Assembly (NCBI GenBank): GCA_038061075.1
Contig: JBBUAA010000083.1
Coordinates: forward strand, 1-35,235
Length of the DNA: 35,235 nucleotides
Direction of reading: 5' to 3'
Origin: Patescibacteria group bacterium
Lineage (GTDB): Bacteria > Patescibacteriota > Minisyncoccia > Phycocordibacterales > UBA2100
The position numbers and the translations under genes are program-made. Below are positions 215-35,235 of this stretch, one piece after another (position 1 is the stretch's first letter; each line of letters opens with the position of its first letter). Under the pieces are notes generated by a model. That model worked only from the letters and a program-made list of their open reading frames with translations. It did not search any database and was not told the origin of the DNA.

Positions 215-760
215 ATGAAAACAGCTACAGCAACAGTGCGGGCGAACACATTCAACGCGCTCAAAGGCGACTTCGGCTACACAAGTCCGATGCAGGCGCC
301 GCGGGTGGTGAAGATCGTCGTCTCGTGCGGCGTAGGCTCGGTCAAGGACAAAAAGAGACTTGAGCTTATCGTGGACAGGCTCGCGCGCATCACGGGGCAG
401 GCTCCCGCGGTACGCGGCGCCAAGAAATCCATCGCCAACTTCAAGGTGCGCACGGGCGATATCGTCGGCTATCAGGTGACGCTCCGCGGAGCGCACGGGA
501 AATCGTTCCTCGACAAGCTCATCCACATCGTCCTGCCGCGTGTGAAGGACTTCCGCGGCATCAAGACTTCCGCCATCGACGAAATGGGCAACATCTCCAT
601 CGGCCTCAAAGAGCACACGGTCTTTCCGGAAACATCGGACGAGGATTCGAAGGACATCTTCGGCCTCGCGGTCACCATCGTGACGACCGCCAAGAACAAA
701 AAAGAAGCGGAAAGCTTCCTGCGCCACCTCGGCGTCCCGTTGCAGGAGGCAAATAAATAA
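215..760 (+). CDS. rplE: 50S ribosomal protein L5
   Basis: 181-aa ORF with typical L5 sequence (PRVVKIVVSCGVG..., KSIANFKVR, FRGI..., ISIGLKEHTVFPE). Synteny after rplX. Confidence 0.97.
   Translation: MKTATATVRANTFNALKGDFGYTSPMQAPRVVKIVVSCGVGSVKDKKRLELIVDRLARITGQAPAVRGAKKSIANFKVRTGDIVGYQVTLRGAHGKSFLDKLIHIVLPRVKDFRGIKTSAIDEMGNISIGLKEHTVFPETSDEDSKDIFGLAVTIVTTAKNKKEAESFLRHLGVPLQEANK
722..760 (+). repeat. Direct-repeat copy 1: authentic 3' end of rplE (RHLGVPLQEANK-stop)
   Basis: cgccacctcggcgtcccgttgcaggaggcaaataaataa. The first 18 nt are identical to 2449-2466, and the rest differs only at third codon positions plus one codon. Confidence 0.9.
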
Positions 761-767
761 CAAAAAT

Positions 768-795
768 AAAACGGGCACCTGACGGCGCCCGTTTT
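768..795. terminator. Bidirectional intrinsic terminator after rplE and after the minus-strand ORF ending at 813
   Basis: AAAACGGGC (768-776), 10-nt loop, GCCCGTTTT (787-795). The A-run and T-run allow termination in both directions. Confidence 0.6.
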
Positions 796-812
796 CAGCT
801 CACGACTTCTTT

Positions 813-1187
813 CTATGGGAGCAGAATGTCCGCGCCGACAGTGAGACCGAATGCTAGCTGACAGACTCCGCATACGGCCATCAGTCTCGTATTCAAATCC
901 CATTTAGACCACTCCCACTTCAGCCATTGTGCGGTAGTCCAAGTCGGAAAGTTGATCGAGATGCCCACTAGCCACGGAGTGATAGCGAACACCGCAAGGA
1001 ACATTGACACCCCGCCCATCTCGGTGAGTGGACTTTGTTCGGGTTGAAACGCAAATACACTTCGTAGGATTGCATGAAGGGCCATCAACCCCGTGCCACT
1101 TCCTGTCATCAGACAGGCCACGAGCATCGGAATTGTCCTGACGACCCTCCAGGTTCGCATTAGCAACTGCATGTTCATCTCCTTCAT
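813..1187 (-). CDS. Small hydrophobic protein with about three predicted TM helices, unknown family
   Basis: 124-aa ORF. Its start overlaps the stop of the upstream ORF by 4 nt (ATGA at 1184-1187). Hydrophobic stretches IPMLVACLMTGSGTGLMALHAIL, GGVSMFLAVFAITPWLVGISI and LMAVCGVCQLAFGLTVGADILL. Confidence 0.5.
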   Translation of the reverse strand: MKEMNMQLLMRTWRVVRTIPMLVACLMTGSGTGLMALHAILRSVFAFQPEQSPLTEMGGVSMFLAVFAITPWLVGISINFPTWTTAQWLKWEWSKWDLNTRLMAVCGVCQLAFGLTVGADILLP

Positions 1188-1555
1188 TTTGCCCCGATGA
1201 GGCCGCCGAGAACGGCATACAGCCTGCCGATGGTTTCTTTGTCACCGGAGAGCAGCATTTGTTTCGGGTCGATGTCTCCGTGGGTCTCCGCGACCCACTT
1301 CCTGATAGAGGCCCTTTCATTGCCGCATAGGATGCCGATCCAAAGACCGATGTCGACGATCCAATCGAGAATCTCGATGGAATCCGGATTGCCGGCGAGC
1401 CAGTCTCTCAGAGTAATCAGCGAATCGTCGTCGCGGATATCGGGGCGACCGAACACACGGCCCCGCTCTTCCAAACTCAGTCCAAGCACCTTAAGCACAT
1501 TCAGGGCGAGTTGAGCCCGAGTGTCGGCAACTTCTTCGTGACGTCCCGTGGTCAT
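1184..1555 (-). CDS. MbcA/ParS/Xre-type antitoxin-like protein (DUF2384-like C-terminus)
   Basis: 123 aa. HTH-like LGLSLEERGRVFG, then IRKWVAETHGDIDPKQMLLSGDKETIGRLYAVLGGLIG, which fits the W...P..LL......L..L..I..G pattern of the toxin-binding domain. Canonical SD AAGGAG lies 6 nt upstream of the ATG. Confidence 0.55.
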   Translation of the reverse strand: MTTGRHEEVADTRAQLALNVLKVLGLSLEERGRVFGRPDIRDDDSLITLRDWLAGNPDSIEILDWIVDIGLWIGILCGNERASIRKWVAETHGDIDPKQMLLSGDKETIGRLYAVLGGLIGAK

Positions 1556-1618
1556 TCGCAGCTCCTTTTACAAAGAACGAGAGGACCCAGCGACCGCTCG
1601 TTCGGGGGAGGGGTGCTA

Positions 1619-1654
1619 GTATCTTTCAGATACCTAGCTTTTTATTAGGTATCT
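1619..1654. promoter_or_regulatory. Candidate operator in the divergent promoter region (three GTATCT/AGATAC half-sites)
   Basis: GTATCT-ttc-AGATAC at 1619-1633, and AGATACCT-N11-AGGTATCT at 1628-1654. A TAAAAT -10-like box follows at 1657-1662. Confidence 0.4.
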
Positions 1655-1699
1655 GTTAAAATATCACTACTGGACACAGTTCGTCAAGGAAATCTATTT

Positions 1700-2446
1700 A
1701 TGGGCCTTTTTCCCAAAGATCAGCGTGAGAATCTAACCCTTGTCGAAAAGGTTGGTTCGGTGTTTTTGGGCACGCGCGATTTTAGAGTTCTCGCGGAGCG
1801 CGCAGTCAATCTTATGACCTCCGAACTTAAACAAGAAGGGGTTTTGAGTGCTTCGATTTTCCGTGTACACCCAGAGGAGCAGAAGTTGTATGCGTACGCA
1901 TTTTCCTCCGGCGCGTTTGATGCCGTCAACAAACTGTATCCCAAGAAGTTTTCTGAATTGAGTGTTTCTCTCGACGAACCTGCAAACCTTCTTGCAAAAA
2001 CGGTTCGAACGAAAGAGGAACAGGAGGGCGATCATCTGTATGAGTTCGCGCGGCCCGCACTTAGTGAGATGGTCTCGACAGCAGTTCAGCGTCTCGTAGG
2101 GGCAAAACACGGTATCGCATATCCTTTGCGCTTGAAGCAGGGTAAAGTTGCCGGCGTAATCCTGTTCAGTGTCGGCGAACAGGCGATCAATGAACGACAA
2201 AGAATCCTCTTGGAGACCTTTCGCTCACAACTCGAACTCGCGTTCGAGAATGTGATGGAATTCGAACGTGTAGTCGAACGCTACAAACGATTCGTTGTTT
2301 CTGATGACGAAAACAAACCGACGGCACATTTCATGCTCCGTATCACGCCAAAACAGAACACGCTGCTAGAACAAAAGGCCAAAGAGGCGAAGCTAGACAA
2401 GACATCCTACATACGTTCATGGATTGATTCGGGGGCGGGAAGATAA
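1700..2446 (+). CDS. GAF-like sensor domain fused to a C-terminal MobC-type ribbon-helix-helix
   Basis: 248 aa. GAF-like core (...GIAYPLRLKQGKVAGVILFSVGEQAINERQRILLETFRSQLELAFENV). C-terminus AHFMLRITPKQNTLLEQKAKEAKLDKTSYIRSWI resembles RHH/MobC modules. SD-like AAGGA lies 9 nt upstream. Confidence 0.55.
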   Translation: MGLFPKDQRENLTLVEKVGSVFLGTRDFRVLAERAVNLMTSELKQEGVLSASIFRVHPEEQKLYAYAFSSGAFDAVNKLYPKKFSELSVSLDEPANLLAKTVRTKEEQEGDHLYEFARPALSEMVSTAVQRLVGAKHGIAYPLRLKQGKVAGVILFSVGEQAINERQRILLETFRSQLELAFENVMEFERVVERYKRFVVSDDENKPTAHFMLRITPKQNTLLEQKAKEAKLDKTSYIRSWIDSGAGR

Positions 2447-2448
2447 TA

Positions 2449-2484
2449 CGCCACCTCGGCGTCCCGCTGCAAGAAGCGAAATAA
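2449..2484 (+). pseudogene. Orphan duplicate of the rplE 3' end (RHLGVPLQEAK-stop), att-like direct-repeat copy 2
   Basis: cgc cac ctc ggc gtc ccg ctg caa gaa gcg aaa taa. Compared with 722-760 it has 18 identical nt, four synonymous third-position changes and one codon missing. No upstream rplE body. Confidence 0.85.
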
Positions 2485-2491
2485 CAGAAGT

Positions 2492-3091
2492 TTATTCGAT
2501 GAGAGTCCCTTGGACTCTCTCGAACTCAAGCACCTCGGAGTTCCTGATTAGGATTGTTCTGCTCGTAGTGTAGGAAATGCCCTTGTTGGGGCCGGACTCA
2601 AACCCAAGGTAAACACAACTCACTCCACGCTCTTTGACTTCGCGGATTGCCGGTTGTAGGTCGGAGTCTGAACTGCCAAGGATAATTTCCTTCACCTTTT
2701 TATCGCAGGTGTTGGCGACCATGTCCACGGCCATCCGCACATCAACGCCTTTCTCCTTGAAAACCAGGACCTTCTTGCCGCCTGGTCCGACTTCAAGCTG
2801 TCCGCGAACTCGACCGGCTAAAATTACTTGGAAGCCCTGTCGTTCAAGATGTGTTTTTAGGAGCCGCTGCTCCTCGATGAGTTTCTTTGATTTTTCCTTG
2901 CTGTCGTCGTGCTCTTTGATGCGCGCAAAATAAAATGCTTGTCTGTTGATTTTCACACCTGCAAGTACCTTGTCCAATAGGCCCCTAAAATCATACTCAT
3001 GCCATATGGGTCGCGTTTTTCCGGAGGAAGTAAAAACATCCTTCACTTTGCCCTTGAAGTTCTCCCCATCGATGAGCAGGATGGTCTCCAT
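2492..3091 (-). CDS. NYN/LabA-like (DUF88) domain protein, putative RNase
   Basis: 199 aa. LLIDGENF..., KGVDVRMAVDM..., ILGSSDSDLQPAIREVKERG match NYN-domain acidic motifs. TAAAAT lies 8 nt upstream of the ATG. Confidence 0.7.
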   Translation of the reverse strand: METILLIDGENFKGKVKDVFTSSGKTRPIWHEYDFRGLLDKVLAGVKINRQAFYFARIKEHDDSKEKSKKLIEEQRLLKTHLERQGFQVILAGRVRGQLEVGPGGKKVLVFKEKGVDVRMAVDMVANTCDKKVKEIILGSSDSDLQPAIREVKERGVSCVYLGFESGPNKGISYTTSRTILIRNSEVLEFERVQGTLIE

Positions 3092-3120
3092 ATCAGGCTA
3101 TTTTAGCAGAAAACCAATTC

Positions 3121-3152
3121 AAAACCCCAGCGGGCCTTGCGGCTGGCTGGGG
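3121..3152 (-). terminator. Intrinsic terminator downstream of the DinJ-like gene
   Basis: Minus strand reads CCCCAGC-CAGCCGCAAGGCCC-GCTGGGG followed by TTTT. Confidence 0.5.
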
Positions 3153-3189
3153 CGTGTATATCCACACTCTACTCAGATACCATGAGGTG

Positions 3190-3372
3190 TCAATGAAGGA
3201 TTGGGGACGAGGGGCTGTTGGACTTTTTACCGAAACTGATTTCTCCTTGCGCGACTATATCTCGCAGTATTTGATTGAGAATCGCTGAAAATGGGATTCC
3301 CCATTTTTTTGCCAGTTTTTGCGCTGCTTCCTTTAGCTTCTTGTCGGTCTTGAACATGACAGTGGTCTTCAT
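3190..3372 (-). CDS. RelB/DinJ-like ribbon-helix-helix antitoxin-like protein
   Basis: 60 aa. VMFKTDKKLKEAAQKLAKKWGIPFSAILNQILRDIV resembles DinJ (V..RID..LK..A..VL..GL..S..I). Inverted repeat ATACCA-N12-TGGTAT (3373-3396) abuts the start. TATACT lies 7 nt upstream of the ATG. Confidence 0.6.
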   Translation of the reverse strand: MKTTVMFKTDKKLKEAAQKLAKKWGIPFSAILNQILRDIVAQGEISFGKKSNSPSSPILH

Positions 3373-3420
3373 ATACCAAAGTATATATTCTGGTATAACT
3401 CTGTCAAGCGCAACTTTAAT

Positions 3421-3443
3421 CTCCGGAGGTTAAACCTCCGGAG
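3421..3443. repeat. Palindromic element CTCCGGAGGT-TAA-ACCTCCGGAG (family copy a)
   Basis: Perfect 10-bp arms with a 3-nt loop. Related copies at 15050-15095 and 32016-32030. Confidence 0.85.
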
Positions 3444-3495
3444 ATCGAACAATAGTGAATTGCCACATTTTCAGGCGGCGGGTGGTGCTTAATCG

Positions 3496-3523
3496 TTGCT
3501 GGACACGGTCCGTAGGCTATAAT
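3496..3523 (+). promoter_or_regulatory. Sigma70-like promoter TTGCTG-16-TATAAT driving a leaderless ORF
   Basis: -10 TATAAT at 3518-3523 ends 7 nt before ATG 3531. Shares GGCTATAAT with the adk and ftsH promoters. Confidence 0.55.
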
Positions 3524-3530
3524 TCATCCG

Positions 3531-3824
3531 ATGAACCTACGTCAGATTTTGATATTTGAAGGCATAGTTGGTATTGGCCTTATTGCAATCATCACATATT
3601 TTGGCCTTCAGCCCCAAGACGATTCATGGGGCCCATATTGGATCATGGAGGATATAACGCTGTTCGTTCTTATGGCCGTCGTGATGTACGCAACTGTTTG
3701 GCTATCAAGACTACTTACATATGCCGGGAATCGAGGGGTATCATCGACTCAGAAACGACTAATCGGCTTTGTACTAGCCGCCGGTTTGCTTTTCGTAATG
3801 TATTACATTGTAGTAGGCTTATAA
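3531..3824 (+). CDS. Small membrane protein (about three TM helices), unknown family
   Basis: 97-aa ORF with three long hydrophobic segments, directly behind a near-consensus promoter. Confidence 0.55.
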   Translation: MNLRQILIFEGIVGIGLIAIITYFGLQPQDDSWGPYWIMEDITLFVLMAVVMYATVWLSRLLTYAGNRGVSSTQKRLIGFVLAAGLLFVMYYIVVGL

Positions 3825-3847
3825 CGGACGTTGTTATAACGGACGTT
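3819..3847 (+). repeat. Tandem direct repeat, 2 x TTATAACGGACGTT at 15-nt period
   Basis: Copies at 3819-3832 and 3834-3847. The second copy runs into the -35 of the next promoter. Confidence 0.85.
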
Positions 3848-3875
3848 TGACTTCCGCTTCCACTTCGCGTATATT
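3847..3875 (+). promoter_or_regulatory. Candidate promoter TTGACT-17-TATATT that could re-drive rpsN and the distal operon
   Basis: -35 at 3847-3852, 17-nt spacer, -10 at 3870-3875, about 155 nt upstream of rpsN. A weak hairpin with a T-run at about 3880-3905 complicates the reading. Confidence 0.35.
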
Positions 3876-4031
3876 TCTCAAGCCTCGTAGGGGGCTTTGT
3901 TTTTTGACCACAGGTTGGAAGAAGAACAGGGCCACGCGAAGAAGCTTCTGTAATCAGGCTGCGCAAGCGCCGGATGCAAGGGCTTCTAGCTTCCCCCTAT
4001 TTGGCATACCTTTCAAATCTGTCCAAGAAAT

Positions 4032-4217
4032 ATGGCCAAGAAATCAATGATAATAAAGGCGCTCCGCGTGCCGAAATTCTCTACCCGCACCGTGCGGCGC
4101 TGCTTCAAGTGCGGCCGCCCGCGCGGCTTTATGCGCGATTTCAACCTCTGCCGCATCTGCTTCCGCGAAGAAGCACTAGAAGGGAATATCCCTGGCATCA
4201 AAAAGTCCTCTTGGTAA
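4032..4217 (+). CDS. rpsN: 30S ribosomal protein S14, type Z (zinc-binding, 61 aa)
   Basis: [46 protein letters not shown]... with a CxxC...CxxC motif. Confidence 0.95.
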
Positions 4218-4258
4218 TTACTACGAACTATGCACTACAAACTACGAACTAATTTTTT

Positions 4259-4654
4259 ATGGTAGGCGACCCCGTCGGTGACTTCATAGTGCGCCTTGCA
4301 AATGCAACGGCCATCAAGAAGGCCTCGGTCTCCGTGCCGTTCTCCGCTTTCAAAATGGCCATCGCGGAGAAGCTCAAAGACGCGGGCTTTCTGAAATCCA
4401 TCGAGAAGAAGGGCAAGAAGGTCCGGAAGACCATGGACATCGCGCTCAAGTACGATGAGGCGGGACACTCCGCCATCGAGGGCGTGAAGCGCATCTCGAA
4501 GCCCGGTCGCCGCATGTACAGAAACGCCCGCGAGATCGTGCCGGTCCGCTACGGACGCGGCGCACTGCTCCTCTCGACGCCAAAGGGGGTGCTCACCGAC
4601 AAAGAGGCGCGCAAACAAAACATCGGCGGCGAAGCGCTCTTCGAGATCTGGTAA
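4259..4654 (+). CDS. rpsH: 30S ribosomal protein S8
   Basis: 131 aa. DPVGDFIVRLANA..., typical S8 C-terminus GGEALFEIW. Synteny. Confidence 0.95.
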   Translation: MVGDPVGDFIVRLANATAIKKASVSVPFSAFKMAIAEKLKDAGFLKSIEKKGKKVRKTMDIALKYDEAGHSAIEGVKRISKPGRRMYRNAREIVPVRYGRGALLLSTPKGVLTDKEARKQNIGGEALFEIW

Positions 4655-4691
4655 CTACAAACTACGTTCTACGTACTACGAACTAATATAT

Positions 4692-6826: not shown

Positions 6827-8101
6827 ATGTGGGAAGCATTTTGGCGCAAAACGAAACTCATCCTTGCGGATGAGACGCTGCGCGCGCGCGTCCTGTTCGT
6901 CCTCGGCGCGTTCATTGTATTCCGCCTGCTCGCGGCGATACCTATACCCGGCATTGATGCGCTCGCCCTTGAGAATTATCTCGCCAACAACCAATTCCTC
7001 GGTCTCCTCAACATATTTTCCGGCGGCGGGTTTTCCAACCTCTCCATCATGATGATCGGAGTCTCGCCCTACATCACCGCCTCCATCATCATGCAGCTCT
7101 CGACGGTCCTCTCGCCGAAATTGAAGGCGCTCTATCAGGAGGAAGGGGATGCGGGCCGCATGCGCTTCATGCAGTACTCGCGGTACCTCACGGTGCCGCT
7201 CGCGTTCATTCAGGCGACCGGATTTTTGGTACTGCTCCAGCAGAACGGCGTCGTGCCGGCTCTTGGTATGCTCCAGATGGTGACCAACATAACCGTTATC
7301 GCGGCGGGGGCGCTCCTCATCATGTGGATTGGTGAGCTCATCTCCGAATTCGGCGTGGGCAACGGCATCTCGCTCCTCATCTTTGCCGGCATCGTCGCAT
7401 CTATTCCTTCCTCGATAGCGCAGTTCGTATTCTCGTTCGACCTCTCGCAACTTCCCGCATATGTCGGATTCGCCGCCGCCGCCGTCCTCGTCACCGCGGG
7501 AGTCGTCTTCATTACCGAAGCGGAGCGCCCCATTCCCGTCACCTATGCACGCCGCGTCCGCGGCATGAAGGTCATGGGGGGCGTCTCTACCTACCTGCCT
7601 CTGCGCGTCAATCAGGCGGGGGTGATGCCCATCATCTTCGCGCTCTCGATACTGCTCTTTCCGCAGATGATCGCGACCTTCCTCGCCAAGAGTTCTATCC
7701 CGTTCATCGCGACCGCCGCAGGCGCCGTTGTCGGCGCGCTCGGCAATCAGTGGATATACGGCGGGCTCTACTTCGGATTCGTATTCATCTTTACGTACTT
7801 CTATACGGCCATCACCTTCGAACCGAATCAGGTCGCGAAGAACCTGCAGAAGAACGGCGCGTTCATCCCCGGTGTCCGCCCCGGTACTACCACCGCCGAA
7901 TACCTCGGCAACATCATCACGCGCATCACGCTGGTAGGCGCCCTCTTCTTGGGCTCGCTTGCGCTCCTCCCGCTTATCCTGCAGGGGCTGACCGGCATCA
8001 CCGCACTCACGATAGGCGGCACCGCGCTCCTCATCGTCGTCTCCGTCGTCTTGGATGTCGTGAAGAAAGTTGACGCGCAGACCTCTATCAGAGAGTATTA
8101 G
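6827..8101 (+). CDS. secY: Preprotein translocase subunit SecY
   Basis: Multi-TM ORF with SecY motifs (IPIPGID, NIFSGGGFSNLSI, GISLLIFAGIV). ATG 6827 preferred over GTG 6809, which overlaps rplO. Start uncertain. Confidence 0.93.
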   Translation: MWEAFWRKTKLILADETLRARVLFVLGAFIVFRLLAAIPIPGIDALALENYLANNQFLGLLNIFSGGGFSNLSIMMIGVSPYITASIIMQLSTVLSPKLKALYQEEGDAGRMRFMQYSRYLTVPLAFIQATGFLVLLQQNGVVPALGMLQMVTNITVIAAGALLIMWIGELISEFGVGNGISLLIFAGIVASIPSSIAQFVFSFDLSQLPAYVGFAAAAVLVTAGVVFITEAERPIPVTYARRVRGMKVMGGVSTYLPLRVNQAGVMPIIFALSILLFPQMIATFLAKSSIPFIATAAGAVVGALGNQWIYGGLYFGFVFIFTYFYTAITFEPNQVAKNLQKNGAFIPGVRPGTTTAEYLGNIITRITLVGALFLGSLALLPLILQGLTGITALTIGGTALLIVVSVVLDVVKKVDAQTSIREY

Positions 8102-11956: not shown

Positions 11957-14797
11957 ATGCCTCCGACATTGGAGAAGCCGCATATTGCGGCACCCGCAAA
12001 GTTCAAATCTCCCGAGGAGGAACTTTCCTATTTGCGGCAGCGCGTCGCCGAAAAAGAGGGGGAGCTTGAGGCGGCGCACAACCGTTTTGAAAGCGACCGC
12101 ATCGCCAAGCGTGAGGTCGCTGCGTACGCCGAGGTGCCGGCGGCGACCGTACTTCACGAATCCTATGTTATGCCCGAACACGAGTCGGTGCGGCATAAGC
12201 TCCGGCTTGAGCCGGAGACGCACGACGTCCAGATGGATGAACTTCTGAAGATTGTGGTGGAGCGGGGGATAAAAAACGCGCTCGCGGTATGCGCCAAATT
12301 GAAGAACCCCCACCTTGAGGATGATTTTCACCGCATGCTCACGCGATACGTCGCCGAGGGTTTGCCGGATGCCGGCGGCGCGCCGCCGGAGCGTATCCGC
12401 CGCGCGCTCGACCTCGTACTTTTCACGGTTGATCCGCAGGCGCACGGCGAGCGCGAAAAGCAGGACAACAGCCAGCATCGTCTGGAGCAGGTACTTTCGT
12501 CGTCCGAACAGCTGTATGCGGGACTCCTCTCGTTCATCGGGAAACACGAAGGATTCTCACTGGAGATAGCGGTACCCGAAGGCACGGAAGCGGCGATCCT
12601 CTATCTTGCCGTACCGCGTCAGAAGAAAGACCTTGCCGAACGCCTCATCTCCTCGGTATTCCCCAATGCCCGTATTAATGAGGAGCGCGGCGATTACAAT
12701 ATTTTCAATTATGAAGGCGCGCATGCGGCCGCCTACGCGACATTGGCCGATACCCCCGCGTACCCCCTGAAGACGCCGGATATGTTCGAGCACGATCCCA
12801 TGAACGTGCTTTTGGCCGCATTCGCGAAAATTGCGAAGCACGGCGAGGGCGCGGCGATGCAGATAATGGTGGGGACCGAGGGCGACCGCTACAATCATCA
12901 CTACAAAAAAATGTTGCGGCGTCTCGAGAAGGGCAAGACCCTGCATAAGGCCCTCGCCGTCCCCGAGAGCGCGGTCGGGGAGATGCTCTACGACATGTCG
13001 CATATGATGCTCAAGGACGAAAAGCAAATGCAGGCCGAGAAAGACCGTGCATTCCGCCGGCAGGCCGACAAGGTCGCGGCGGAGGAGATAGAACGCAAGA
13101 TTAAGAGCAAGATCGGGCCGACCCTCATCCGCCTCGTCGCATCAGCGCCGGCGAAGGCGCGCGCCGAAGATATTCTCGGCAATCTTATCGCCCCCTTCAG
13201 CCAATACGACGACCCGAAGGGCAACCGTCTGGTATTCAAAAAGATCTCGGGCTGGAGCCTCAACAGCTTCCTGCGCGACTTCACCTACCGTATATTCGAT
13301 TCGTCCTACGCGGTCCCGCTCTCGCTCGCGGAGGTCACGGCCATCTTTCACTTCACCGCAGAGCGGGTCCACACCTCGCGTGAGCTGAAGCGCTCGTTCG
13401 CCAAGCAATCTCCCGCACCGGTCGAGATGCCGTCCGACGGCATCACACTCGGTGTGAACCGCTACGGTGCGGAGGAGCGGCCCGTCAAATTCGGCGTCGC
13501 CGACCGCCTCCGCCACTGCTATGTGATAGGGCAGACGGGTACCGGAAAGACGGGGCTGCTCAAGAATATGATCATTCAGGATATCAAGAACGGCGACGGT
13601 GTCGCCTTCGTCGATCCGCACGGCAACGACATCGAGGACATCCTTGCCGCCATCCCGCCGGAGCGCGCGAAAGACGTTATCTACTTCGATCCGGCGCATA
13701 CAGACCGCCCCATGGGTCTCAACATGCTCGAATACGACCGCACGAAGCCGGAGATGAAGACATTCGTCGTTGACGAAGTGTACGGCATCTTTCGCAAGCT
13801 TTACGCCGATGTGCCGGAGGCGTTCGGCCCGATGTTCGAACAGTACTACCGCAACGCGGTCCAGCTCGTCGTCGAGGATCCGGACTCAGGTTCGACGTTC
13901 GTCGAGATACCCCGCGTGTTCGCCGACACCGCATTCCGGAATCTGAAGCTCTCGCGGTGCAAGAATCCCATCATCGTGCAATTCTGGCGCAAGATCGCCG
14001 AACAGGCGCAGGGCGATCCCTCGCTCGAGAATGTCGCGCCCTATATCACGAGCAAATTCGACGTCTTTCTCACCAACGACATCATGCGGCCCATCGTCAG
14101 TCAGGAGAAATCCGCGTTCGACTTCCGCAGCATCATGGACGACAAGAAAATATTTCTCGCGAATCTCTCGAAGGGCCGCTTGGGCGACCGCAACACGAGT
14201 CTGCTCGGACTCATCCTCGTGTCCAAATTCCTGCAAGCCGCGTTCTCGCGCGTCGACACGCGCGGCGGCAGCCTTCCCGTCTTCTATCTCTACATCGACG
14301 AGTTCCAGAACTTCGCGACGCCGTCTATCGGCACCATCCTCTCCGAGGCCCGAAAATACAAGCTCTCGCTCGTCATCGCGCACCAATTCATCGCGCAGCT
14401 CGACGAGAAAATACGCGATGCGGTCGTGGGCAACGTCGGCACGAAGGCATCTTTCCGCGTGGGTACGACCGACGCGGAATTCCTCGCGAAACAATTCGAG
14501 CCCGTCTTCGGCCAGCAAGACCTCGAGAATCTTCCCAACCGCCATGCGGTGTGCGCGCTCCTCGTCAACGGCGTCCCCGCGCGGCCATTCTCGCTCCAGA
14601 CGGAAAACCTGCCTGCCTTCGACTTCAGCACGGTCCCCGCATTGAAGGAGCTTTCATACCGGACGTTCGGGCGCGACAGGGAAGAAGTGGAATCCGAGAT
14701 GCGCGCGAAATTCGAAGCAAGTTACGGCAAGCCCGCAGCCCCCGACCTTGGCGCCGCACTCGGCGGCCTGCCCGACCCCGCGTCGCTGTACCAGTAG
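11957..14797 (+). CDS. Large soluble TraD/VirD4/TraG-like (FtsK-HerA superfamily) ATPase with an unknown ~500-aa N-terminal region
   Basis: 946 aa. Walker A GQTGTGKTG, Walker B FYLYIDEFQNF, and SEARKYKLSLVIAHQFIAQL typical of the TraG-D C-terminal domain. No obvious N-terminal TM helices. Confidence 0.75.
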   Translation: MPPTLEKPHIAAPAKFKSPEEELSYLRQRVAEKEGELEAAHNRFESDRIAKREVAAYAEVPAATVLHESYVMPEHESVRHKLRLEPETHDVQMDELLKIVVERGIKNALAVCAKLKNPHLEDDFHRMLTRYVAEGLPDAGGAPPERIRRALDLVLFTVDPQAHGEREKQDNSQHRLEQVLSSSEQLYAGLLSFIGKHEGFSLEIAVPEGTEAAILYLAVPRQKKDLAERLISSVFPNARINEERGDYNIFNYEGAHAAAYATLADTPAYPLKTPDMFEHDPMNVLLAAFAKIAKHGEGAAMQIMVGTEGDRYNHHYKKMLRRLEKGKTLHKALAVPESAVGEMLYDMSHMMLKDEKQMQAEKDRAFRRQADKVAAEEIERKIKSKIGPTLIRLVASAPAKARAEDILGNLIAPFSQYDDPKGNRLVFKKISGWSLNSFLRDFTYRIFDSSYAVPLSLAEVTAIFHFTAERVHTSRELKRSFAKQSPAPVEMPSDGITLGVNRYGAEERPVKFGVADRLRHCYVIGQTGTGKTGLLKNMIIQDIKNGDGVAFVDPHGNDIEDILAAIPPERAKDVIYFDPAHTDRPMGLNMLEYDRTKPEMKTFVVDEVYGIFRKLYADVPEAFGPMFEQYYRNAVQLVVEDPDSGSTFVEIPRVFADTAFRNLKLSRCKNPIIVQFWRKIAEQAQGDPSLENVAPYITSKFDVFLTNDIMRPIVSQEKSAFDFRSIMDDKKIFLANLSKGRLGDRNTSLLGLILVSKFLQAAFSRVDTRGGSLPVFYLYIDEFQNFATPSIGTILSEARKYKLSLVIAHQFIAQLDEKIRDAVVGNVGTKASFRVGTTDAEFLAKQFEPVFGQQDLENLPNRHAVCALLVNGVPARPFSLQTENLPAFDFSTVPALKELSYRTFGRDREEVESEMRAKFEASYGKPAAPDLGAALGGLPDPASLYQ

Positions 14798-28045: not shown

Positions 28046-28448
28046 GGTGGAGGTGTCGGGTATCGGACCCGAGTCCAGAGAAAGATGATATGCACGTGTC
28101 TACGAAGCGTAGGTCATCTTGGTGAGACCGGGGTCTCATTTCAGATACGCATGTGTGAGATGAACAGAATCATGCGCAGCCTAGTCCCGTTCTCTTAGAT
28201 GCGGAGGGGACACTCGTGCATCAGTGCTTGAATTTTTTTACGCCCGGTCAACTCATATCAAGCATGGAGCTGACGGACGGCGCTTAGGCTACGAGAGCGT
28301 AAGCGGGCTGCAAGTCCTTCATCTGAATAGGTGAAAGAATTGCCCGTGCTACTTTGTTCGCACTTGGAATTTGAGCGGGTTTGGAGAGTCGCTCACTCTC
28401 GCAACGCGCATGCATAGACCGATTTCCCTGTCGAAGCCAGTCACCCCC
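28046..28448 (-). ncRNA. ssrA: tmRNA (transfer-messenger RNA)
   Basis: Minus strand starts GGGGGTGACTGGCTTCGACAGGGA. It ends ...TGGACTCGGGTCCGATACCCGACACCTCCACC, giving a T-arm TCGGG/CCCGA and acceptor GGGGGTG/CACCTCC with a G3:U pair. The internal tag frame ends ...QPAYALVA-TAA (stop at 28284-28286). Adjacent to smpB. Confidence 0.9.
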
Positions 28449-28571: not shown

Positions 28572-29015
28572 CTATTTAGTTTTCAAAGTACGTTCGATCC
28601 GTCTATCCTCCTCGCGCTTCCGGATAGTATGACGTCTGTCTTCCTTTTTCTTTCCGCGCGCGATGGCAATCGAGAGTTTCAACCGTCGCCCTTCATTGTA
28701 CACCTTAAGTGGCACGATTGTCAATCCCTTTTCGCCCTCCGCGCTCGCCACATGGGCTATTTCTTTCTGCGAGAGGAGGAGCCGCCGCGAACGTTCGGGG
28801 TCGTAGGATTTCGGCGCATTGGCTATTTGCCACGCGGGGATGGAGGCACCCACCAAGTACGCCTCGCCGCCCCGCGCGACCACCCGCGCTCCCTTCAGGG
28901 AGCCCCGCCCCGCGCGGAGCGATTTCACTTCGAATCCGAGCAACTCGAGTCCCGCCTCGATCTCCTCAAGGATGGTGTAGTCGAGCCCGACCTTTTTATT
29001 TTCTACCAATGCCAT
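28572..29015 (-). CDS. smpB: SsrA-binding protein SmpB
   Basis: 147 aa. ENKKVGLDYTILEEIEAGLELLGFEVKS..., LLLSQKEI. TATAGT lies 6 nt upstream of the ATG. Confidence 0.93.
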   Translation of the reverse strand: MALVENKKVGLDYTILEEIEAGLELLGFEVKSLRAGRGSLKGARVVARGGEAYLVGASIPAWQIANAPKSYDPERSRRLLLSQKEIAHVASAEGEKGLTIVPLKVYNEGRRLKLSIAIARGKKKEDRRHTIRKREEDRRIERTLKTK

Positions 29016-35103: not shown

Positions 35104-35175
35104 CCGCCGATAGCTCAATGGTAGAGCAGTCGCCTTATACGCGATTGGTTGGGGGTTCGAGTCCCTCTCGGCGGA
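35104..35175 (+). tRNA. tRNA with anticodon UAU (reads AUA, isoleucine)
   Basis: Cloverleaf folded by hand. Acceptor CCGCCGA/TCGGCGG, D-arm GCTC-AATGGTA-GAGC. Anticodon arm GTCGC-CTTATAC-GCGAT with anticodon TAT at 35136-35138. 5-nt variable loop, T-arm GGGGG-TTCGAGT-CCCTC, discriminator A. CCA is not encoded. Confidence 0.8.
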
Positions 35176-35235
35176 CAGACATGAAGAAGGGTGGGGATTC
35201 GCGTGTTGCGTCATTTTTCACGCGTGCCACAATGC

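Follow-up and report, generated by a model that had tools for sequence, protein, structure and literature searches.

The gene for ribosomal protein uL5 (rplE) has two ends in the DNA described here, a 35,235-nt stretch from a Patescibacteria group bacterium (contig JBBUAA010000083.1), which was analysed whole and is called the window below. The first end belongs to the gene itself, and the second lies about 1.7 kb further downstream, in accessory DNA that separates rplE from the next ribosomal protein gene, rpsN. We lean towards the view that this second end is the scar of a recombination event that was anchored by homology in rplE and completed by an illegitimate second join, a "C-terminal displacement". 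The view rests on divergence of the two ends of the type seen in coding sequence, on the recurrence of such scars in relatives, on boundaries that vary from one scar to the next, and on the absence of a recombinase. The rplE-rpsN junction is a hot spot shared among ultra-small groundwater bacteria, and there is no evidence for a self-mobile element with an integrase of its own.

Copy 1 of the repeat (tail 1, 722-760) is the functional end of rplE, 12 codons and a stop that translate as RHLGVPLQEANK. Copy 2 (tail 2, 2449-2484) comprises 36 nt and reads RHLGVPLQEAK-stop, one codon fewer than copy 1. A repeat search of the window aligned 722-753 with 2449-2480 at 88% identity. Both copies open with an exact 18-nt core, CGCCACCTCGGCGTCCCG, at 722 and 2449, for which the 35 kb hold no third match with three or fewer mismatches (0.13 expected). 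Local alignment of the rplE tail against the rplE-rpsN gap gave a score of 50, compared to a maximum of 23 for shuffled sequences. The repeat search, the alignment and the uniqueness of the core agree, and they bear out an earlier note, made from the sequence alone, according to which the rplE end recurs at 2449-2484 with its first 18 nt unchanged. Four substitutions separate the copies, and all four are synonymous (P = 0.003 for four random substitutions). The same note had described every substitution as synonymous and third-position; the former is correct, but the ttg/ctg difference is a first-position leucine change. It had also pointed out that copy 2 lacks an rplE body upstream, and indeed the stop codon of a 248-aa open reading frame (ORF; stop at 2444-2446) sits 2 nt ahead of tail 2, which alone is not translatable. 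Given that only synonymous changes are seen, copy 2 is, as had been proposed, the displaced end of an rplE gene, and it was as coding sequence that it diverged from copy 1.

Two further candidates within this region were tried and rejected. A possible third, older rplE end at 2525-2551 (LKHLGVPD-stop) is attributable to chance, with a pairwise score of 35 against a shuffle maximum of 34 and a family profile score of only 5.6 bits, equal to random matches within unrelated genes. A mosaic breakpoint within the rplE of the window was likewise discarded. Identity to the rplE genes of two relatives (loci L085 and L086; fetched loci are cited by such numbers) is even along the gene, so that either tail 1 or tail 2 may be the native one.

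The earlier note had named an assembly artefact as one of the findings that would overturn it. The region is present in 16 contigs; nine separate places were fetched, from several samples, and are colinear with the window at 98.6-100% identity, while an independent 69-kb contig (L084) matches it at 99.6%. The same junction is found in L108, an orthologous copy from a relative; the 248-aa proteins of the two are 84% identical. Recurrence of the same repeat in at least 16 contigs from several samples, in L084 and in a diverged orthologue indicates that it is not an artefact of assembly. The L108 orthologue of tail 2 differs at 7 of its 36 nt, and R>C, L>F and A>S are among the resulting amino acid changes; in that relative the displaced end is decaying neutrally.

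No empty site was found within the species among the 16 contigs, a look-up that proceeded via a 123-aa ORF of the enclosed DNA and can return only cassette-bearing contigs. In the sister species (L085), however, an rplE that is 94% identical is followed directly by a toxin-antitoxin pair, and the 761-2448 block is absent. This arrangement supports the proposal that DNA was added between the rplE body and its old end. A 619-nt contig of coverage 1 from Hainich well H51 (L082) carries rplE and tail 1 identical to those of the window and departs from it 8 nt past the tail 1 stop (587-619; TAGAAATCGACTCGG...), continuing in sequence present in no other fetched locus; it may represent a strain with other cargo, or a chimera. 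The tail pattern occurred in none of 185,579 representative genomes. In the metagenome collection it was seen only in L093 (same species) and L094, neither of which resembles attP, the attachment site of a mobile element.

Displaced rplE ends are also present in relatives. In about 110 loci, we compared the gap of each relative both to the C-terminus of the rplE gene at that locus and to a profile of the family. Six further independent displaced ends were recovered (L094, L086, L099, L140, L152 and L172), all scoring far above shuffled sequences; counting the window and its orthologue L108 as one, the independent scars number seven. The remnant in L094 spans at least 26 codons and heads an intact toxin-antitoxin pair, and behind the remnant in L086 come its old terminator and a gene of 103 aa. 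As in the window, where the toxin-antitoxin/NYN block lies behind tail 2, the displaced end is kept in these loci downstream of the newer module and heads older content. The bracketed cassettes of L099, L140 and L152 contain one small gene each, which in both L140 and L152 is PaaX-like. In L172 the terminator is duplicated along with the rplE end. The L172 copies (7102-7355) lie about 167 nt apart, separated by a hairpin-bearing spacer that holds no gene; the 3' half of this repeat is near identical and the 5' half diverged, the reverse of the pattern in the window.

Across six tail/remnant pairs, 22 synonymous codon differences were observed versus 13 non-synonymous ones, and the nucleotide differences are distributed 12/4/28 over the first, second and third codon positions. 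Divergence of this coding type identifies the two ends as functional alleles that had diverged in different genomes. The positions of the joins differ from scar to scar: counted from the stop codon, the left boundaries fall at 36, 39, 42, 48 and 54 nt in five scars and at ≥69 and ≥78 nt in the other two. On the right, the boundary lies directly past the stop (L172 excepted), which is where the downstream contents of two alleles would begin to differ. In L094, 43 more nucleotides of rplE precede the same sequence as the window core, so the 18-nt core is not the edge of the original duplication. A fixed att core at the L-R codons, which the window, L086 and L099 had at first suggested, was considered and dropped, given that the repeat in L099 extends to AFLR and those in L140, L152 and L094 are longer still.

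Searches against Pfam, NCBIfam, PADLOC and PHROGs returned no recombinase (integrase, transposase or other), whether from the gap or from elsewhere in the window, and none was found in the bracketed cassettes of L099, L140 and L152. The earlier note was thus right that no integrase lies between the repeats. Its interpretation of the locus as an integrative element of the att type fits less well. Direct repeats carrying the 3' end of the target gene do flank the insert (722-760 and 2449-2484), but no recombinase is encoded in or beside it, and the seven independent scars share neither a common core nor a common boundary (36 to at least 78 nt). Moreover, the homology in L094 exceeds the core, and no attP-like copy was found in IMG/VR. 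Six IMG/VR matches to the 18-mer, on which an attP carried by a virus or plasmid might have been based, have no similarity beyond these 18 nt and are ascribed to chance. An integron cassette is not indicated either: no IntI-like protein was detected, the repeat is a coding gene end rather than attC, and the core folds into a stem of only 4-5 bp.

The insert had been thought to end at 2484. Instead, accessory DNA with six ORFs fills the entire gap between rplE and rpsN (761-4031, 3.27 kb), and rpsN starts at 4032. The features of this region are as follows.

215-760, plus strand: rplE (uL5), 181 aa, the left anchor; Pfam Ribosomal_L5 and L5_C; 94% identical to L085 and 92% to L086
722-760, plus strand: tail 1, repeat copy 1, RHLGVPLQEANK-stop
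768-795: hairpin of 12 base pairs with T-runs on both sides, a predicted two-way terminator after rplE
813-1187, minus strand: 124-aa predicted membrane protein; no family match
1184-1555, minus strand: 123-aa ORF, species-specific; AAGGAG 7 nt before the start
1556-1699: divergent control region; inverted repeat CAGATACCTA/TAGGTATCTG at 1627-1636 and 1646-1655
1700-2446, plus strand: 248-aa predicted regulator, GAF plus ribbon-helix-helix (RHH)
2449-2484, plus strand: tail 2, the displaced rplE end, RHLGVPLQEAK-stop
2492-3091, minus strand: NYN-domain (LabA-like) predicted nuclease, 199 aa; Pfam NYN, E 1.5e-14; PADLOC HEC-09 and NYN
3096-3198, minus strand: 104-nt non-coding element with a terminator-like hairpin and a promoter-like site
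3190-3372, minus strand: truncated RelB/DinJ-type antitoxin, 60 aa; promoter at 3407-3380; 13-nt perfect palindrome at 3419-3445
3531-3824, plus strand: 97-aa predicted membrane ORF; GC 0.43, the lowest in the gap; no family match
3847-4031, plus strand: rpsN promoter and leader; TTGACT-17-TATATT at 3847-3875, hairpin with a T-run at 3880-3905, structured leader
4032-4217, plus strand: rpsN (zinc-type uS14), 61 aa, identical in L085 and L086

The enclosed DNA is lower in GC, as had been judged by eye: 0.513 for 761-2448 against 0.566 for the rest of the window, where other 1.7-kb stretches go down to 0.468. The value for 2485-4031 is 0.473. Both transcription units of the enclosed DNA had been assigned Shine-Dalgarno leaders. 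The AAGGAG before 1555 is present, but the AAGGA before 1700 is part of a conserved, family-wide GTCAAGGAA motif. Tail 1 together with the 768-795 hairpin resembles the remnant and terminator of L086. Neither the 123-aa nor the 124-aa ORF had a family match in four libraries, and the sole match of the 123-aa protein among 5.8 billion proteins was itself. A W..EWS.W.L.TRL motif at the C-terminus of the 124-aa protein recurs in a 125-aa protein of L095, the partner there of a paralogue of the 248-aa gene. An Rfam search of the gap gave no match.

Downstream of tail 2, the NYN gene takes the place of the toxin of an ancestral toxin-antitoxin pair, judging from L094, which has an intact pair at this position. 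Intact pairs are also present in L085 and L086. The window itself no longer qualifies as a RelB/DinJ toxin-antitoxin locus, since the 60-aa antitoxin scores below curated cut-offs, the toxin is absent and the NYN gene is found instead. The 5' end of the truncated antitoxin gene and its promoter are about 80-85% identical to L085 and L094. A copy of the 104-nt element adjoins the rplE remnant of L086 (4521-4624) and matches that of the window at 93%, whereas the rplE DNA of the two species is only about 86% identical; the start of the element is also present at L108 1530-1569, and its position relative to the antitoxin gene differs between the window and L086. It may be a small mobile regulatory module.

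The earlier note had called the enclosed DNA a foreign cassette. The 248-aa protein has weak matches to Pfam GAF_2 and to NikA-like proteins. Its AlphaFold 2 model (pLDDT 82) was matched by Foldseek to GAF structures (E ~1e-8, TMt 0.67-0.77), and its C-terminal strand-helix-helix gave a weak NikA match and a structural match to 2ba3 (E 0.15). On the basis of this model, the protein is predicted to combine an N-terminal GAF sensor with a C-terminal ribbon-helix-helix domain, and thus to bind a ligand and DNA; a GAF fold coupled to a DNA-binding output domain is what characterizes GAF-domain regulators. The inverted repeat at 1627-1636/1646-1655 is probably its operator. Operator-like palindromes (CAGATACCT) in the control region are conserved or co-varying in relatives.

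The family of this GAF-RHH gene is small and clade-specific (35 protein clusters), and its members are always divergent from a variable partner gene. Members reside within the same rplE-rpsN gap in L096, L097/98, L099, L100, L109/110 and L116, and others at different loci, for example upstream of tig. The family has several paralogues per genome (L095 1-120 and 782-1525; L100-L107), each facing a different partner; FabH-like, epimerase, radical SAM, haem-oxygenase-like and membrane proteins occur in this position, and the L095 copy contains an in-frame stop. The family looks like a set of ligand-sensing local regulators specific to the Candidate Phyla Radiation (CPR). With the family of the main enclosed gene resident in this gap in at least six other lineages, the description as a foreign cassette does not hold. 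The main gene of the 761-2448 block is, as far as its relatives indicate, native to the gap and not foreign to the clade.

The junction as a whole behaves as an insertion hot spot in Paceibacteria, CPR bacteria of the Kaiserbacteria-like kind; the window itself comes from such an organism of Hainich groundwater. The distance between rplE and rpsN ranges from 184 to >8000 nt in the 14 closest genome relatives and from 51 to 5229 nt in 66 further Paceibacteria loci (median ~440 nt, most >100 nt), nearly all of which are expanded; non-CPR bacteria that came up in the search for the closest relatives have a gap of only about 20 nt. Relatives retain both anchors, with conserved rplE to the left and a conserved promoter, leader and gene of rpsN to the right, and the cargo between them differs, even among genomes whose S14 proteins are identical. 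L085, L088 and L092 carry a YafQ/RelB-type toxin-antitoxin pair, L086 and L089-91 such a pair plus a 103-aa gene, and the window six ORFs. Across related genomes, the contents of the gap include pairs of a GAF-RHH regulator and its target, toxin-antitoxin pairs of the RelB type, and genes of the PaaX-like or NYN kind.

The 190 nt ahead of rpsN are conserved across relatives; in them a promoter is accompanied by a T-run hairpin and by a stem whose pairs show compensatory changes. The spc operon is thus split after rplE into two transcription units, the first closed by the rplE terminator and the second opened by the rpsN promoter and leader, and the split makes the space between the two genes permissive. 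In an alignment of nine relatives, the T-run hairpin stands right after the promoter (within 3847-4031), in the manner of an attenuator, and the leader stem-loop GAAGCTTCCGTAATC...GGATGCAAGAGCTTC shows compensatory changes at seven pairs. It may be an undescribed ribosomal-protein leader of Kaiserbacteria.

The C-terminus of uL5 past the G-x-P-L/F motif varies widely in length and sequence in about 100 Paceibacteria loci, even between close relatives. Examples are PLQ, PLQK, PLQEANK, PLIVDSGVKR and PLREVEAKK, each followed by the stop, as well as long lysine-rich tails. Such variety fits frequent replacement of the gene end. Free-standing GIY-YIG genes are found elsewhere in the ribosomal operons of relatives, in L085 at 1776-2030 (before rpsS) and in L096 at 4018-4296 (rplN/rplX), which suggests that the operon tolerates or attracts homing-type genes at other junctions too.

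A comparison of gap contents suggests how the scar in the window could have arisen. L085 has the order rplE, toxin-antitoxin pair, leader, rpsN, and L116 the order rplE, partner genes, GAF-RHH gene, leader, rpsN. In the window and L094 both contents stand in series, joined by a displaced rplE end; in L086 they follow in the opposite order. An exchange between L085-type and L116-type alleles would be the simplest account. In this proposal, DNA from a relative with other content would pair through rplE or, in the mirror case, through the rpsN promoter and gene, and its other end would be joined illegitimately a few dozen nucleotides inside the resident rplE 3' end. The product would then read rplE body, end of one allele, new cargo, end of the other allele, old cargo. 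In the window, the regulator/target module (761-2448) would have come to lie between the gene and its old end (2449-2484), which would still head the older, toxin-antitoxin-derived content. At a later stage, the NYN gene and the 104-nt terminator/promoter element would have replaced the toxin and truncated the antitoxin. We infer the enzymology, namely RecA-type anchoring and a microhomology join, probably after DNA uptake, as well as which end was incoming. When the L094 junction was compared with L116, a proxy for the un-inserted parent, a CGCG motif was found in both the rpsN promoter region and rplE, which is compatible with a microhomology join.

Several observations weigh against such an exchange by homology and chance joining. 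Three of the seven left boundaries (window, L172 and L086) fall within two codons, the L-R of FLRHLG, and all seven lie in the last ~80 nt of a 540-nt gene, more clustered than joins placed uniformly at random. The last 35 nt of the L094 remnant (931-965) are identical to window 2449-2483, and simple neutral decay is insufficient to explain this. The adjacent 248-aa genes of these two loci are 66% identical and the antitoxin/promoter flank 85%, and the closer relative L108 differs at 7 of the 36 positions; the 35/35 identity could be due to gene conversion, to selection acting on this stretch, or to a donor allele that both loci received recently. Furthermore, homology-facilitated illegitimate recombination usually gives deletions, not duplications (PMC3240628). 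Finally, no parental allele of the same species (donor or empty site) was recovered that would fix the direction of the event in the window or reveal microhomology at its junction. The clustered boundaries, the 35-nt identity and the deletion bias keep alive an enzyme-guided process, that is, an integrase acting in trans or a nuclease.

One form of such a process, site-specific integration of small cassettes that bring a replacement rplE end, would make the tails attL and attR and require a tyrosine or serine integrase that acts in trans or has since been deleted. We consider it unlikely, but several features speak for it: the exact 18-nt core of the window followed by diverged sequence, the three scars that begin within two codons of one another, and the homologous PaaX-like single-gene cassettes between the rplE ends of L140 and L152, whose tails differ. 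The identity between tail 2 and the L094 remnant despite diverged flanks could likewise mean a conserved site. Against this, neither the 35-kb window nor any bracketed cassette that was read encodes an integrase, the boundaries differ from event to event (36 to ≥78 nt), the target DNA is poorly conserved from lineage to lineage, with about 10 of 18 nt shared between the L099 core and that of the window, and in L094 the supposed core is preceded by 43 nt of further rplE homology. Some cassettes measure no more than ~70-435 nt (L172, L099), IMG/VR yielded no attP-like copy, tail 2 decays neutrally in L108, and the cargo at 761-2448 is clade-native and usually resident at the locus. A broader version holds that the uL5 gene end is a dedicated docking site for cassette capture in Paceibacteria, served by an unrecognised recombinase or nuclease in trans; we regard this as rather improbable. 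Equally speculative is its corollary, that promoter-bearing cassettes are stacked beside rplE, each with a replacement C-terminus, and that the displaced ends form a fossil record of their arrival.

A nuclease could act differently, by homing-like repair. A sequence-tolerant endonuclease would cut rplE near the L-R codons, repair would copy the end and cargo of a relative, and the right break end would be rejoined without homology, leaving the end of the recipient downstream; the C-terminal replacement in Allomyces atp6 was reportedly explained in this way (Paquin et al. 1994). This explanation needs no integrase and accommodates both the clustering of remnant starts in the last 36-78 nt and the allele-like divergence of the ends; the GIY-YIG genes in the ribosomal operons of L085 and L096 and the NYN gene that abuts tail 2 in the window and L108 would supply candidates. 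Yet no bracketed cassette contains a homing-endonuclease gene, the NYN gene is located outside the bracket and proteins of its type are predicted to be RNases, the boundaries differ, and no changes conferring immunity at a cleavage site are seen beyond ordinary synonymous divergence. We therefore give it little credence. Much the same standing belongs to a Campbell-type single crossover, itself a variant of the displacement model, in which a circularised fragment with a short rplE 3' piece and cargo would duplicate exactly that piece. Single crossovers of circles in Escherichia coli gave duplications of the homologous segment rather than deletions (PMC3240628), the topology of the product is the one observed, and the exact 18-nt block is a plausible crossover site. 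However, RecA would have very little homology to work with (36-78 nt), longer homology makes such events more frequent and yet no duplication above ~80 nt occurs in the ~110 loci, and a circular form was not seen. An assembly artefact, or an in-situ tandem duplication followed by decay, is barely credible. Short repeats can mis-join contigs, and L082 (coverage 1) diverges 8 nt after tail 1, but the same architecture comes from several samples and assemblers in the 16 contigs and is repeated in L084 and L108; decay after in-situ duplication should affect all codon positions, whereas the differences are synonymous in the window (P = 0.003) and distributed 12/4/28 in the pooled pairs.

Displacement of gene ends has precedents. 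Paquin, Laforest and Lang reportedly described in 1994 the replacement of the C-terminal part of atp6 and cox genes by mobile endonuclease ORFs in fungal mitochondria (Allomyces atp6). There, as here, a foreign end plus an ORF replaces the native C-terminal part, the native remnant is retained downstream, and the ends differ like alleles; the fungal elements encode the endonuclease that drives the process, whereas the rplE cassettes have no such gene. Hot spots flanked by core genes are said by Oliveira et al. (2017) to lack mobility genes in many cases and to turn over via homologous recombination in the flanks. The rplE-rpsN gap resembles them in holding variable accessory content between two conserved core genes and differs in lying inside the normally unbroken spc operon, where single events are recorded by the gene ends they left as scars. 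Insertions in Gammaproteobacteria and Bacilli are found between ribosomal operons, not within them (PMC8046335).

A close parallel in architecture is C-terminal displacement in Rhs, CdiA and type VI secretion system (T6SS) loci with their orphan arrays (Jackson 2009; Poole 2011; Kirchberger 2017), and "sequential displacement" via illegitimate recombination facilitated by homology was put forward for T6SS and Rhs loci (PMC5361080). These systems share with the rplE scars a conserved upstream anchor gene, modules that bring their own gene end, the retention of the previous end and downstream genes, pushed back, and the lack of a recombinase. They displace variable toxin tips under selection on immunity, whereas here the conserved end of an essential ribosomal gene is displaced, regulators and toxin-antitoxin pairs make up the cargo along with small genes of unknown function, and the host is an uncultivated CPR lineage. 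Streptococcal elements of the integrative and conjugative (ICE) and the integrative and mobilizable (IME) type integrate in the 3' ends of rplL, rpsI and rpmG (Ambroset 2016, PMC4701971), so the insertion pattern as such is not new. As in those cases, a ribosomal gene 3' end is targeted, the repeats reproduce the end of that gene exactly and leave it intact; the direct repeats measure 12-54 bp there and 36 nt here. The streptococcal elements, however, have a tyrosine integrase, extend over tens of kilobases and use a fixed repeat per integrase group, while the cassettes described here lack an integrase, measure ~0.1-1.7 kb and have variable boundaries, and rplE is not among the listed targets. 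What is unusual in the present case is the site inside the spc operon, the displacement of the end of the essential uL5 gene, and the CPR host.

Members of the CPR, or Patescibacteria, have tiny genomes with few recognisable mobile elements and no cultured genetics, and the route by which they acquire accessory genes is little understood. The junction provides a clade-wide hot spot inside the spc operon, which is otherwise among the most rigid of bacterial gene orders. Scars are found in at least seven lineages, each recording one acquisition event and its polarity. If homology-anchored illegitimate recombination is the correct reading, they would be direct evidence, and a measure, of the exchange of DNA among related species of the CPR; should a dedicated enzyme turn out to act here, they would mark a new integration system. 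Both genes, rplE and rpsN, serve as standard markers in phylogenetics, and contigs that carry them are used in binning; mosaic ends and variable cargo matter for both uses.

Other observations concern the rest of the window. A repeated motif, ACTACGAACTA(T/C)G...CTACGAACTAAT (34 nt, 82%), occurs at 4220-4253 and 4654-4687, directly upstream of rpsH and rplF, and may be a translation or processing signal shared by genes without a Shine-Dalgarno sequence. At 11957-14797, downstream of ribosomal and purD genes, a 946-aa protein is encoded that shows weak signatures of a TraG/VirD4 coupling protein and a HerA-like ATPase; it is the only conjugation-type gene recognised in the window. The window also contains a tRNA-Ile gene with anticodon TAT, which is uncommon in bacteria, and a tmRNA gene that adjoins smpB (listed 35104-35176; 28046-28448; 28572-29015).

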